Source of the DNA: Escherichia coli
Lineage (GTDB): Bacteria; Pseudomonadota; Gammaproteobacteria; Enterobacterales; Enterobacteriaceae
Direction: 5' to 3' (one strand)
NCBI RefSeq assembly: GCF_001677475.2
Contig: NZ_CP012498.1
Length of the DNA stretch: 64,000 nt
Shown here: positions 51,001-60,000 of the stretch, one piece after another
Position numbering within the stretch: the stretch's first letter is position 1
Layout: each line of letters starts with the position of its first letter
Made by a program: the position numbers

Positions 51001-54000
51001 GATTTGTACATGTGCAAATCACCAGAGCACCCGCTAATCTTTGTTTTAAATTAAAATGGGCAGAATATATTCCGCCCGGCTTTGTTATTTTTTTAACATA
51101 GAAAGATTGCGTCTGGTTTGTTCTTCGAAATCATCTTTTGAAGTGATGCTCTCTGATTTGTTTTCTGAAGATGCCCCTATGATGTTTTTTAACACACTTA
51201 TATCAATTGATGTAGATGTGTATCCTGTTGTTTGCTCTATAAGTTTCACCAGATTTTCTGCAGTGATTTTCTCACTGAAAAAACCACTGATTAGCGTTAA
51301 CAGTCGGGGGTCAACAGAATAAAGAGCTGCTCCGCAAATAAGAGATTGTCTGTAGAAGTCTCCCCGCATTTGTATCGGGAGAGAGTCTATTGTTTGTTGT
51401 GTCAGGTTATCCTGCGGATAAAGTGTCGGGTGCAGGTATGCCACAACTTTCTTTCTTTTTTTCGGATCACTGCTTTCCATTACGCATGCACCATTGCTTT
51501 CACCAATGCAAACTGAGGTTCATCCACCTTGTTCACTTTCAGATTCGGGAAATATTGCTTTATGTGAGGGTAAATAAGCTCGGCTCCTCCGCCAGTGAGA
51601 TAGATTCGGTTCATTCCTGAGAATGTTGAAATTTCCTGCCTGATGCTTTCTGCCAGAGATTTCACTTCCCTGTCTATTACATGAGTAATGTTTTTTATTT
51701 CAGCTACATCATTTATTAATGTCTGGAGATATTCATTATCATGTCTGTTTTTTATTAACTCATCAGCAATAAAATAATTACATGGTGTGGAGGCTTTCGT
51801 CAGCGCATTCATGACGGTATGAGTGATGCGGGATGTCCCGATTTCTGAATACCCACGGATTTCAGAAATGCCTTCAAATGCACCGAGAATTAAACCACAA
51901 TCCAGAGTGGTTCCTCCAAGATCGATAATCAGGCTGCGTTCAAGTTTGTTTACTTTATCTTTTTTTAGTGATTCAAATGCAGCTGGCAAAGATTCAGGCA
52001 TTACATTAACTTTTTTAATTTTAAATGTTTCCCCTTTATTCAGAGATATCTCACGGAGAACATTTGCCTTTTTTCTTTCTATTCTTTCTTCATTTGGTTG
52101 ATTGTCATTATCAAAGAATTCGGTTACAGGTAATGTCACTGTCAGTTCTACATCCTGTGGCTGAAGGCCGGATGTCAGCAGTGCATGATGTATGGCAAGC
52201 AAATTGGTGGTGCTGTATTGATAACTGACATGTGTTGTACCTATGACAGCAGTGCTGCCCAAATCATAGGTGTATTTTTTTCCATCCACGACGTAATTGT
52301 AAACTTTGCCGGCATTAAACAGTCCCGGGTTCCAGCCTTCTTTAAAGCTGTTTCCTGACAGACTGGTTCTTACCTCGCCATCTTCAAGCCAGGCCAGTTT
52401 TACGTTAGTTGAACCATCATCGCATGATACTTTTAGCATTTTTTTTCTTGCCTCGTTTTGAGTTTGTGTTTGTCTCAAATTGAGCATCCTTCATATAGAT
52501 GCATCTTTTTGAGTTTTTTGTTGTTCCTTATTGTGTCTCATTTTGGGTTCATGTCAAGCGATGAGGCTCTTTTAGAGTCTCTTTGTGTTCTTGTTGTGAC
52601 TCAGTTTGAGTCTCTATCGATTTCTCATTTTGCGTTACGAACTGAGACGGAAACTACTTAACCAGGCCGTGCCGGCACGTTAACCGCCCGTTTCTTTTCC
52701 GGTAAAGGATGTCGCCGTGCTCCTCTTTTTACTGCGCCGGCTGACGCGGCGCGGCATAAACGCTGCCTGTGGTCAGTGTCCCGCGTCCGGCGGGCACGGG
52801 ACGGGCGCTTTTACCGCTCCCGGCTGGCGTCGGTGACAGTGTACGCCAGCCAGTCGCCCTTTTCTGATGAACGCCCTTCAAGCCGCTTTCGCGGCATAGC
52901 CTTGCCGTCAAAAAGACGACGGCTGCGGTATTCCACGGTCGGCCTGACCCGTTACCGGACGCGGTGAACAGCCCACAGGCAGCGGGGAACGGGCACCACA
53001 GGGGGGCCCTCCCGGTGCCCTCTGTAAGAGAAGGAGTTTTGTATGTCCCGTTTTGTCCTCGGTAACTGCATCGATGTTATGGCCCGTATTCCTGATAACT
53101 CCATTGATTTCATGTCGGGTAGCAGCTGCACATTACTGTGCAGCCGCCCCCTAAGAACCGTACGTGCCAGTTTCCCGGCATACGGCTCAAGCCTTTCAAT
53201 AACTCCACATTAGAGCCGGCTTCATAACAGATATTCCCTGATGTTTTGCAGTGTGATGACATGCCGGATGTAACATGGCCAGATTACCTATGTTATCCAG
53301 TCCCCCTTCGGATTTCGGCACAATGTGTCGAAGTTGCCAGCCTGTTGTGGCGTTCACTGGCAGGTGGCAGACGGGGCACTGACCTCCCTGTCGGAGCCAC
53401 AGATTTCTTAGGCGAGAGTAACCCTGTATGGATTCCAGCATCGTAGCTTTTAGCCGTGCTTCAAAGTACGATTCGTAGCTGGGATCAAAAGGGTTAGCAG
53501 TGCTTTTTATTTGTCTGTGTCTTTTGACTGGCATATCCGAGATTTCATATAGCGCCAGTAACTCACGTTTGCCTGATGGCAGGTATGAGACGACAATAAC
53601 TCAGTCCGCCTGGCGCCGATTATTCTGGCCGGTTTTGTAACCTGAGTGTCATTTACATGATCCAACAGGAAATGGCGTGACGCTCAATACTTCTCAGGTC
53701 AGTTACTATATGACTCAGCGTAAGAAAGGTATAACTCAGCATATCTCGGCCATGAAGGCTGGTATCTCAGTCCGTTCTGGTCGTCGGATCGAAAAAGGAG
53801 AGTGGGCAAAAAACAGTGTTCGGCACTGGCGCACACGCAAAGATCCTCTGGAAGCTGTGTGGGACAGCATGCTTGTTCCTCTGTTGAAAGAGAGGCCGGC
53901 TCTGACACCAACAACTCTACTGGAGATGCTACAGGATAAATATCCCGGCCAGTACCCCAACAGCCTTCGAAGAACAATGCAACGGCGGGTTCGCGAATGG

Positions 54001-57000: not shown

Positions 57001-60000
57001 GTAACCCCTTCTTTTCAGCGTGTATATAGCCTTCATCTTGCTGCCGGGTTTTGACCATGTTTTGCCATCAACACCCGGCGTTCTCTTCCCTCTGTTATCT
57101 GTCACTCGTTTAACTGCCATTGCTCTGGCGCTGAACGAGTGGGTGAGTAGCCATTGCAAGGCTTTTACCTTGCCCGCTTTCTCCTCCTGTATTGCCTTCA
57201 CGATACGCGCCTGCAGCCTTCTGACCTCGCGACGGCACTTGGCCCAGTTGATATTGTGCCAGTGAGTCACGATGTCGGTGGGTGCACCCGCGTTTATGTT
57301 TTTCGCAGTCATCTGCTTACCCTCCTTCAAAGGTATTCAGGTTATCTCGTGTTGAAAGACCATGCGGAAGTCTGCCCGCTTTCGCGTGGAATGATGTTGC
57401 TGAAACAGCTCAACTCCTGTCCATCCCATTACAGGATGGCATTCGCTTTCTCCGCACTCCTGTACCCGCATCACTGACAGCTTTCCTCGCGGTTAGCCTG
57501 CCCTGAGGGCAGTGATACGGGCTTACCGTGTTCCGCACAGTTTGCAGGGATGGGTTAGGTTCTGCCTATCCACCGGTAGCTTTGATGTCCGTGCCTCCCC
57601 AGTCAAAAGAGGAAGGTCCAGCTACGTTCCCATTTTGGGTCGGGCCTGTCAGTGCCTTTGGCCCGTTCAGGGTTGACGATGTTTATCAGCAGTTCACATG
57701 TGTTAACCCTGCCATCCAGCCTTGCGCCCCATCCGCCCTGACACTGGCAGACATGCTTCCTCCTCGCGGATTCCACATGGTGTGAAAACCGGGCTACGTT
57801 GTCCCGAAGGCTTCATACCGAACAGTTACCCGCTCTGCATGCTTCGGTAGGCTACAGGCGACGGAACGCCTGGTTTTACTACTTCCTTTACATGAAGTTA
57901 AAACAACAAACTGTGCGACTTTCACGTCGCACACTGACTGACCCACCGTACCTCGTCGGTTTCCGTGACCGTTCCGGGCGCACCATTGCCGGTGACGTTA
58001 ATGATGACTGGCTGCAACCTGCCAGCAATGAGATGTACCGCGTACTCAAAAAAGACGCACTGATGGTCAGCTTCTACGGCTGGCACCGTATTGACCGCTT
58101 TATGGCGGCCTGGAAACGCGCCGGATTCAGCGTGGTAGGGCACCTTGTGTTCACCAAAAACTACACATCCAAATCTGCGTATGTCGCGTACCGCCACGAA
58201 TGCGCTTACATCCTGGCAAAGGGCAGTCCGGCCCGGCCCCGTAACCCGCTGCCGGATGTGCTGGGCTGGAAATATTCGGGCAACCGCCATCACCCGACGG
58301 AAAAGCCCGTTACCAGCCTGCAACCGCTGATTGAGAGCTTCACACACCCGAACGCGATTGTGCTGGATCCGTTTGCAGGCAGCGGTTCAACCTGCGTGGC
58401 TGCCCTTCAGTCCGGACGCCGGTATATCGGTATCGAGCTGCTTGAACAGTATCACCGTGCCGGACAGCAACGACTGGCCGCCGTGCAACGGGCCATGCAG
58501 CAGGGGGCCGTGAATGATAACTGGTTTGAACCGGAGGCTGCATGACGAATTACAGCGGATTCGAAGATATGCGTGAACAGGTGGCGGAACTGGCCAATAC
58601 CATGTGCGACCTGCGTACAACCATGAATGAGATGGAGCAGCGGTAAAGCGATGCGGACACCCTCCCGGAACGTCTGGTGCGCCAGACACTCTTTCGTGCC
58701 AGTTACCTGTTTATGAAGGCATATAACGAAATTCTGGAACTGGATGCGTGCTTTAAAGATTGAGAAGGAGACGAGAATGTACGGAACATGCGAAACGCTA
58801 TGCCGGGCGCTGGCAGCAAAGTATCCGGGAGACACGCCGCTGATGCTGGTTATCTGGTCCCCGGAAGAGATTCAGGCCCTCGCTGACGGAATGGATATTT
58901 CCCTGTCCGATCATGAAATCAGGACCGTCCTGGCGCGCCTGGAGGACATCCCGGAAGACCAGCGGACTGAGTCCTGTATTTCTTCCGGCGTGGCGATGGA
59001 GATCATCAATAACGTGAGAGAAAACCGCCAGGTGACCGTCCCGGCTGAACTGCTGGCGTCCCTGATTCAGACCGCCGAACAGGCACTGTGGAAACGTGAA
59101 TGGGCCGCCCGTGATTACGGCCTTGCCGTCCCGGAATGCGTTACCCGCCGTCAGGCGGTGGTTAATCAGGCCCGCATCCTGCTGAAAAACAACACACACG
59201 AAAACGACTGATGTTATCGCCGCCTTCGGGCGGCGATTCAGGGAGACCATTAATCATGAACAAAACGCTGAATGCACTGGTTTGTCGCCACGCCCGTAAC
59301 CTGCTGCTGGCGCAGGGCTGGCCGGAAGAGACGGATATTGAACAACTGAATCCGCACTATCCGGGCTGGATCAGCATTTATGTGCGACTGGATGTATCCC
59401 GGCTGGCGACGTTACTTATCAGCCGCCATGATGGCGTGCTGCCGCCGGTCCTGGCGTCTGCCATGCAAAAACTGACCGGAACCGTGGCGGAACTTGTACT
59501 GTCCGGCAGCCAGTGGCAGGCGCTGCCGGTACTTCCGGCAGACGGAACGCAGGTGTCTTTCCCGTATGCCGGCGAATGGCTGGCAGAAGACGAAATTAGG
59601 GCAGTTCTTGATGCGGTACGCAATGCAGTACGAAGCATCTGTTACCAGGTGGCAGACGATGCGCGGCGTATCCGGGCGGCGCTGACCACCACCGGTCAGA
59701 CGTTGCTGACCCGCCAGACGCGCCGCTTTCGTCTGGTTGTGAAGGAAAGCGATTACCCCTGCTGGCTTGATGAAGATGACGAAAATCTGCCCGTGGTGCT
59801 CGATGCCATTCTGAACCGTGGCGCCCGTTTTTCCTCTGTGGAAATGTACCTGGTCTGTGAGTGTGTGGAGCATATCCTGGCCAGTGGTCTGGTCTGTGAT
59901 GTGCTGCGTATACCGGATGAACCGTCCCGTCGCTGGTTTGACCGGGATATTCTGCGGGAGGTTGTTCTGGAGGCACGGGATGAAATCCGCAGCATGGCGG

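Follow-up and report, generated by a model that had tools for sequence, protein, structure and literature searches.

A group II intron interrupted by ISEc10 lies antisense within a leading-region DNA methyltransferase gene of an Escherichia coli plasmid

We have analyzed a stretch of 64,000 nucleotides (nt) from an Escherichia coli plasmid (assembly GCF_001677475.2, contig NZ_CP012498.1), which we call the window. It contains a gene for a DNA methyltransferase that is split by 4819 bases of foreign DNA: an oppositely oriented group II intron, which in turn harbors the insertion sequence (IS) ISEc10. The features of the locus are collected in Table 1. The first part of the gene (exon 1) has its ATG at 53043, reads MSRFVLGNCIDVMARIPDNSIDF and ends with GAT TTC AT at 53113; the second part (exon 2) starts with A CTG ACT GAC CCA CCG at 57933. 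When 53114-57932 is removed, the exons join in frame to form a 684-nt open reading frame (ORF), which ends at 58545 and codes for 227 amino acids. The break is located inside codon 24 (AT/A; here and below, a slash marks the point of insertion), immediately 5' of the region coding for the catalytic DPPY motif, and the encoded protein reads ...DF/ILTDPPY.

An earlier reading of this DNA, made from the sequence alone (the sequence-only reading), had proposed that the joined exons restore a methyltransferase, and this is what we find. The joined protein aligns without gaps to M.EcoGIX of pESBL-EA11 (96% identity, 218/227 residues, E=4e-172) and also, end to end and gap-free, to the intact "putative methylase" pO157p38 (88% identity, E=4e-159). 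The whole protein is covered by NCBIfam NF010253 (485 bits, cut-off 244), and the Pfam domain N6_N4_Mtase (PF01555) spans residues 21-201. The joined exons show DPPY (motif IV), FxGxG (motif I) and full-length homology, as expected of M.EcoGIX-type enzymes. By homology, then, the split gene is an orphan leading-region methyltransferase of the M.EcoGIX family. The best-matching uninterrupted allele that we have found is 97.7% identical to the window allele.

The insert has the signatures of a group II intron on the minus strand. Its 5' end is GTGCGAC at 57932 (GUGCGAC in the RNA, which conforms to GUGYG). Its 3' end is CTACCCGAC at 53114, or ...GCTGCTACCCGAC in a longer reading, and conforms to AY. 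An A located 7 nt from the 3' end (...GCUGCUACCCGAC at 53114) would be the bulged branch point of domain VI. Covariance models bear out these opposite-strand ends, which the sequence-only reading had already recognized. Rfam RF02012 (group-II-D1D4-7) matches full-length at 57873-57725 on the minus strand (113.6 bits, E=4e-24, gathering score 34), and RF00029, which covers domains V and VI, matches full-length at 53190-53114 on the same strand (65.4 bits, E=1.4e-11, gathering score 40). The Rfam matches were repeated at gathering thresholds. Judged by these models, the resemblance of the insert to a group II intron is far beyond chance.

The sequence-only reading took all 4.8 kb to be intron. 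The intron on the minus strand is real, but half of the insert is ISEc10, and the intron itself measures 2403 nt. In fact, the 4819 bases are made up of the 2403-nt intron, the 2410-bp ISEc10 and a 6-bp duplication. The istA and istB ORFs of ISEc10 overlap by 4 nt, and its terminal imperfect inverted repeats (53584-53631 and 55946-55993, 48 nt, 71% complementary) are found exactly at its ends. Matching elements in many plasmids are annotated as "IS21-like element ISEc10". Other plasmids which carry the intron align to the window as two blocks that omit 53584-55993, with a 6-bp overlap in the subject. A single 4.8-kb intron would explain why intron signatures are present at both ends of the insert. 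Nevertheless, this explanation is refuted and we give it practically no credit: 53584-55993 is a complete ISEc10, with istA, istB, its inverted repeats and the 6-bp duplication around it; stand-alone copies match it at 98.5-99.8% identity, and the intron measures 2403 nt where it is intact.

If 53584-55999 (ISEc10 and one GGCAGG copy) is deleted, a 2403-nt intron is obtained. It has 4 mismatches with the intron of p14EC029d (L001, incompatibility group IncF) and 1 mismatch with that of p_STEC1588_1 (L002, IncI-gamma/K1), so that identity to intact copies is 99.8-99.96%. Removal of the IS also restores a 566-amino acid ORF for the intron-encoded protein (IEP), which equals the annotated LtrA of these two plasmids except for two residues. 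The domains of the restored protein are RVT_N (18-99), RVT_1 (114-327), GIIM maturase (343-421) and HNH (507-550), with a TIGR04416 score of 379 bits. ISEc10 sits after IEP codon 440, where it parts the maturase (X) domain from the HNH endonuclease domain, and the latter is left in a stranded ORF remnant (53196-53534). There is no structural difference between this ISEc10 and stand-alone copies: only its location, within the ORF of a group II intron, is unusual. The intron-ISEc10 junction is absent from PLSDB and from 5426 complete E. coli genomes, so the IS insertion would be private to this plasmid and later than the intron. Many IS-free copies of the intron are found at the same site, which also argues that the intron was inserted first and ISEc10 second.

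Table 1. Features of the interrupted methyltransferase locus (window coordinates).
Feature	Position	Strand	Description
Methylase upstream non-coding region	52700..53042	+	Putative Frpo/ssi-like single-strand promoter, tentative
Methylase exon 1	53043..53113	+	Codons 1-23 and 2 nt of codon 24; MSRFVLGNCIDVMARIPDNSIDF-I
Intron 3' segment	53114..53583	-	Intron nt 1934-2403: IEP codons 441-566 (DNA-binding/endonuclease region, D/En, with HNH), domains V and VI
Target-site duplication, left copy	53578..53583		GGCAGG, 6 bp; overlap at the break points of L001 and L002
ISEc10, IS21 family	53584..55993	+	Complete, 2410 bp; 100% coverage, 98.5-99.8% identity to annotated copies
istA, transposase	53677..55176	+	499 aa; NF033546 transpos_IS21, 226 bits (cut-off 160)
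istB, helper AAA+ ATPase	55173..55928	+	251 aa; NF038214 IS21_help_AAA, 267 bits (cut-off 200)
Truncated IEP ORF	55819..57312	-	440 native residues (RVT_N, RVT_1, GIIM), 57 ISEc10-derived residues, stop
Target-site duplication, right copy	55994..55999		GGCAGG, 6 bp; overlap at the break points of L001 and L002
Intron 5' segment	55994..57932	-	Intron nt 1-1939: domains I-III, start of domain IV, IEP codons 1-440
Methylase exon 2	57933..58545	+	Last nt of codon 24 to stop; ILTDPPY ... FAGSGS

EcI5 is a known intron of pO157, which has been used as a targetron. It is classified as IIB1/CL1 (PMC8643678). On account of its similarity to EcI5 and of the Rfam sub-model matched, the intron we describe can be assigned to the same class, with a IIB1 RNA and a CL1 IEP, as a relative of EcI5. 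Both introns share the group-II-D1D4-7 model, the type of domains V and VI, an IEP with reverse transcriptase (RT), X and HNH domains (60% identical) and the ID(iv)-N-EBS2a-A-EBS2 layout, where EBS stands for exon-binding sequence. Both are residents of F-like plasmids of E. coli, where they occupy the leading or partition region. The common sub-model, the similar length and the related IEP might indicate that the intron is EcI5 itself. This is also refuted, and the chance that it holds is negligible. Nucleotide identity with the pO157 intron is only 68% (from domain I to the RT region), EBS1, EBS2 and EBS2a are different, and so are the exons and the homing site. Furthermore, the target motif is missing from the methylase allele of pO157, where the site carries synonymous changes (ATCCTCACCGAC). 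In pO157, EcI5 is intergenic and in sense orientation, with sopB on one side and an intact methylase gene on the other, whereas the methylase-site intron lies within the gene, in antisense orientation. A literature search for a database name (E.c.I#) for the methylase-site intron found none. The window contains two introns, the second of which is described below, and one of them may correspond to the intron E.c.I11 of pEC958 (PMC4398462).

In IIB1 introns, a spacer of 3 nt, the middle one of which is EBS2a, lies between the 5' branch of helix ID(iv) and the 5-nt EBS2 (PMC8643678). Applied to our intron, this rule gives CAUCG (nt 252-256) as the helix branch, C258 (57675) as EBS2a and ACCCU (nt 260-264, 57673-57669) as EBS2. 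EBS1 is assigned to UUUGAC (57607-57602), within the hairpin loop UUUUGACUGGG (nt 325-335). Position for position, it is equivalent to the loop of EcI5, which covaries with the different exon of that intron. The exon junction at the methylase site, on the intron strand, is ...ACGGTGGGTCAGTCAGT/ATGAAATC. There, EBS2a C258 pairs with G-14, ACCC of EBS2 pairs with GGGU at -12 to -9, EBS1 pairs with GUCAG at -6 to -2, extendable to -8, with A at +1. Applied as a control to the second intron in the window, the rule gives perfect EBS2/IBS2 (UCGGC/GCCGA) and EBS2a/IBS2a (U/A-14) pairs, IBS being the intron-binding sequences of the exon.

Pairing between intron and exons had been named as a check in the sequence-only reading. 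It is found for EBS2a with G-14 and for EBS1 from -2 to -8, but it is not complete elsewhere, and several points weigh against our assignment. Position -13 is mismatched, which leaves EBS2 with only 4/5 pairs, and EBS1 and IBS1 face each other with a U-U mismatch at -1. Besides, when EBS3 was sought in the ID(i)/(ii) internal loop across three related introns, no position was found to covary with +1. Minimum free energy folding of domain ID was uninformative.

Two other candidates were rejected. The loop ACUGAC (nt 280-285) is a perfect complement of exon positions -6 to -1, but it was discarded as EBS1 because it is conserved in EcI5 despite the different exon of that intron, and because the ectopic sites do not match it. 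As EBS2, GACCCA (nt 292-297) was discarded in favor of ACCCU, since the published ID(iv) rule leads to the latter, also places EBS2a and fits the second intron perfectly.

The same intron-exon 5' junction is found in 66 PLSDB plasmids, IncF and IncI types among them, while the methylase site is uninterrupted in at least 4999. What sets this plasmid apart is the added IS, and not the intron within the methylase gene. The intron is rare: among 5426 complete E. coli genomes, 40 contain it, in 41 plasmid and 17 chromosomal places. We have read the exons of nine intron copies outside an intact methylase context. With the methylase gene, seven distinct natural insertion sites are known; the others are yegP, yfcU, nimT, dhaR, a region resembling an integrative and conjugative element, and the site given by the foreign 5' exon in a rearranged copy. 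They have a common motif on the intron strand, GG-Y-N-GG-K-(2-3 nt)-G-T-Y-R-R-N/A, and +1 is A everywhere. This shared motif is the pattern expected from EBS2a, EBS2, EBS1 and the +1 A, and the methylase site is the best match within the series.

Four unrelated E. coli chromosomes (loci L005, L010, L011 and L012) carry the intron in yegP, in sense orientation, after codon 5 (ATGGCTGGTTGGTTTGA/ACTC...). The yegP gene is a recurrent ectopic site, at which splicing might restore the host gene. The copies in yfcU, nimT and dhaR are all antisense. The rearranged copy (L006, positions 1427-5302 of NZ_AP042524.1, plasmid pOkiPb01685_1) keeps the methylase 3' exon, and its target-like foreign 5' exon abuts a 5'-truncated traC. 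Such a mixture of exons points to a deletion or to recombination between two intron copies.

The divergence of exons and intron was compared between the window and two occupied plasmids. Differences of 5.0% and 8.6% are found in the methylase exons, against 0.04% and 0.17% in the intron. These values fit recent and repeated retrohoming events into alleles that had already diverged. The same junction in the 66 plasmids and in different incompatibility groups, with an intron that hardly varies while the host alleles do, is what retrohoming would produce, and here we agree with the mechanism put forward in the sequence-only reading. The alternative is a single ancient acquisition, followed by spread of the occupied allele through inheritance and homologous recombination; in that case the methylase site would not be a true homing site. 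Leading regions are mosaic and their flanks are patchily diverged, and mosaic recombination of the flanks could in fact explain part of the contrast between exons and intron, a point that tells against retrohoming. We consider a single acquisition quite improbable, nevertheless. The divergence of the intron is more than 30-fold below that of the adjacent exons, sites are occupied on both IncF and IncI backbones, and the same intron is found at no fewer than five other sites which share the motif. Finally, 9 of the 10 strains with a chromosomal copy also have a plasmid copy, among the records seen.

This last observation suggests that methylase-site copies are expressed and mobile. When the minus strand upstream of the intron was scanned for sigma-70 consensus promoters, none was found, which counts on the opposite side. 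On balance we prefer retrohoming: The intron appears to be, or to have been until recently, an active retroelement, and its main homing site would be the antisense strand of the DPPY-coding region of the methylase gene.

Two substitutions in the methylase coding sequence, at nt 58 and nt 84 (window 53100 and 57945), are private to the window allele when it is compared with L001, L002 and L015; pESBL also differs from the window allele at both positions. They flank the intron site at +14 and -13 (intron strand), the latter within IBS2, and may be either ordinary polymorphism or a footprint of integration or repair.

We are confident that two successive insertions have inactivated the leading-region methylase gene. 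In the first, a mobile IIB1/CL1 intron would have entered an M.EcoGIX-type gene on the antisense strand by retrohoming, its target being recognized by base pairing of the intron RNA with DNA through EBS2a, EBS2 and EBS1. In the second, ISEc10 would have transposed into the IEP ORF (in domain IV, after codon 440), with duplication of GGCAGG. It would thus part the RT and maturase from the DNA-binding/endonuclease region and add 2.4 kb to domain IV.

The sense of the intron RNA is opposite to that of the methylase mRNA, so splicing cannot remove the intron from the methylase transcript, and the methylase should be knocked out. The sequence-only reading had reached the same conclusion. The frame of exon 1 runs into foreign sequence and stops at 53213; the first in-frame product (ORF 53043-53213) is a peptide of 56 amino acids, only 23 of them native. 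There are, however, some arguments for a surviving methylase, made from an internal start within the 5' end of the intron, and they count against a knock-out. A plus-strand ORF with a TTG start (57799-58545, 248 amino acids) runs into exon 2 and keeps both DPPY and FAGSGS, there is an in-frame ATG at 57892, and the Prokaryotic Genome Annotation Pipeline (PGAP) labels the equivalent ORFs of other intron-bearing plasmids as "DNA methylase" or "hypothetical protein". We find such a product very improbable. It would lack 23 conserved N-terminal residues, the Pfam domain begins at residue 21, there is no Shine-Dalgarno sequence before the ATG at 57892, and the Frpo-type promoter region is 4.8 kb away.

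Inactivation by the two insertions would have consequences for the plasmid. M.EcoGIX is a promiscuous methyltransferase that produces N6-methyladenine and is specific for single-stranded DNA, with SAY as its target. An Frpo/ssi promoter on the entering strand drives its expression, and it gives pESBL up to ~1000-fold protection from restriction by the recipient (PMC4288162, PMC7736820). If the 96% identical enzyme encoded here had the same role, the plasmid has very probably lost this protection of its entering DNA. The intron copy has probably lost its autonomous mobility as well, because its IEP is split and its domain IV is enlarged by 2.4 kb. Complementation by the IEP of the second intron in the window is unlikely, since the two proteins are only 53% identical.

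The surroundings of the gene correspond to a plasmid leading region, as had been supposed in the sequence-only reading. Without the insert, 3.4 kb (window ~52682 to ~61400) are collinear with the leading region of pESBL-EA11 and 92% identical to it. The gene order is also that of pESBL-EA11: M.EcoGIX, Hp9, DUF1380, YchA and a KlcA/ArdB-type antirestriction protein. The region upstream of ecoGIXM in pESBL is reported to carry an Frpo/ssi single-strand promoter (PMC7736820). In the window, 52700-53042 belongs to the stretch homologous to that region, and its minus-strand DNA, presumably the transferred strand, is predicted to form an extended hairpin of -92.6 kcal/mol (z=-4.7 relative to shuffled sequences). 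A weak, sub-threshold match to Rfam "Erse" is found at 52807-53002.

Genes of the M.EcoGIX type are oriented so that the transferred strand (T-strand) is the template (PMC7736820, PMC11541004). The origin of transfer (oriT) lies outside the window, and we have taken the orientation of the methylase gene relative to transfer from these papers. With this orientation and an antisense intron, the IBS2a-IBS2-IBS1/IBS3 target would be carried by the transferred strand, which is the first to enter the recipient. The intron lineage might then reverse-splice directly into the single-stranded DNA transferred by conjugation, with cDNA primed by the synthesis of the complementary strand. We regard this as an improbable idea. 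The intron would parasitise plasmids on entry, while disarming their anti-restriction methylase. The second intron of the window has the same orientation as the first. EcI5 has the opposite orientation in pO157, which counts against invasion of the entering strand.

Ll.LtrB, found in the relaxase gene of pRS01, is inserted in sense orientation, and its splicing is required for the function of the host gene. Like Ll.LtrB, the intron described here is a mobile group II intron within a conjugation-related plasmid gene. Unlike it, our intron is antisense, and its host gene would simply be destroyed. The gene itself resembles those of M.EcoGIX of pESBL-EA11, YfbB of R64 and YfeA of F, leading-region methyltransferases that form N6-methyladenine and act specifically on single strands. 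The restored protein has the length of M.EcoGIX, with the same neighbors and a homologous Frpo-type upstream region. In contrast with the intact M.EcoGIX gene of pESBL, the window gene is interrupted within codon 24, where 4.8 kb of mobile DNA have been inserted.

The second group II intron is intact, with 2342 nt (61337-63678, minus strand), in the same leading region and on the same strand as the first. It is matched by RF02012 (121.7 bits) and RF00029 (60.1 bits), and its IEP (61418-63085) has 555 amino acids. At least 879 PLSDB plasmids have it at this site, counting matches with at least 80% coverage of 57933-64000. A 2,343-bp group II intron has been described in FII-33/F33:A-:B- plasmids, where it is present in some members of the lineage and not in others (PMC8765060, PMC6052338). 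The second intron is probably this element, and possibly E.c.I11. The FII-33 intron differs from the methylase-site intron in its IEP (53% identity) and in its site.

Other features were noted elsewhere in the window. At 9433-9555, on the minus strand, there is an isrC Hfq-binding small RNA (Rfam RF01387, 146.6 bits). Three consecutive large ORFs of 1003, 705 and 479 amino acids are found at 14196-20820 on the plus strand. Their size and order are those of an hlyA-hlyB-hlyD operon, as in pO157; by size and order only, they suggest that the window comes from a virulence plasmid of the enterohaemorrhagic E. coli type.

In summary, each component of this locus is of a known kind: a mobile CL1/IIB1 intron, a methylase of the M.EcoGIX family and ISEc10. 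They form a nested pile-up of known mobile elements, which is ordinary biology and not a new kind of system. Group II introns in mobile DNA, as well as IS nested in other elements, are familiar in bacteria. Bacterial group II introns are frequently found together with mobile elements, and rarely within housekeeping genes (PMC6003770). Our literature search found no paper that links a group II intron with M.EcoGIX-type genes. The assignment of the homing site and the series of targets may be new details, of an incremental nature, and present views on group II introns, IS21 elements and leading-region methylases are left as they were.

Nevertheless, the arrangement has some practical meaning. 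It accounts for the 5'-truncated "DNA methylase" or "hypothetical protein" annotations which adjoin ltrA in dozens of E. coli plasmids: PGAP calls on ORFs of the 57799-58545 type mask the interruption of the gene. The nested ISEc10 is a lineage marker, apparently unique to this plasmid. The occupied sites, one main homing site and at least five ectopic ones, are a natural target-site series for a relative of EcI5, and could guide its retargeting. For the plasmid, the insertions amount to a natural knock-out of an anti-restriction gene, which should narrow the range of restricting recipients open to it.

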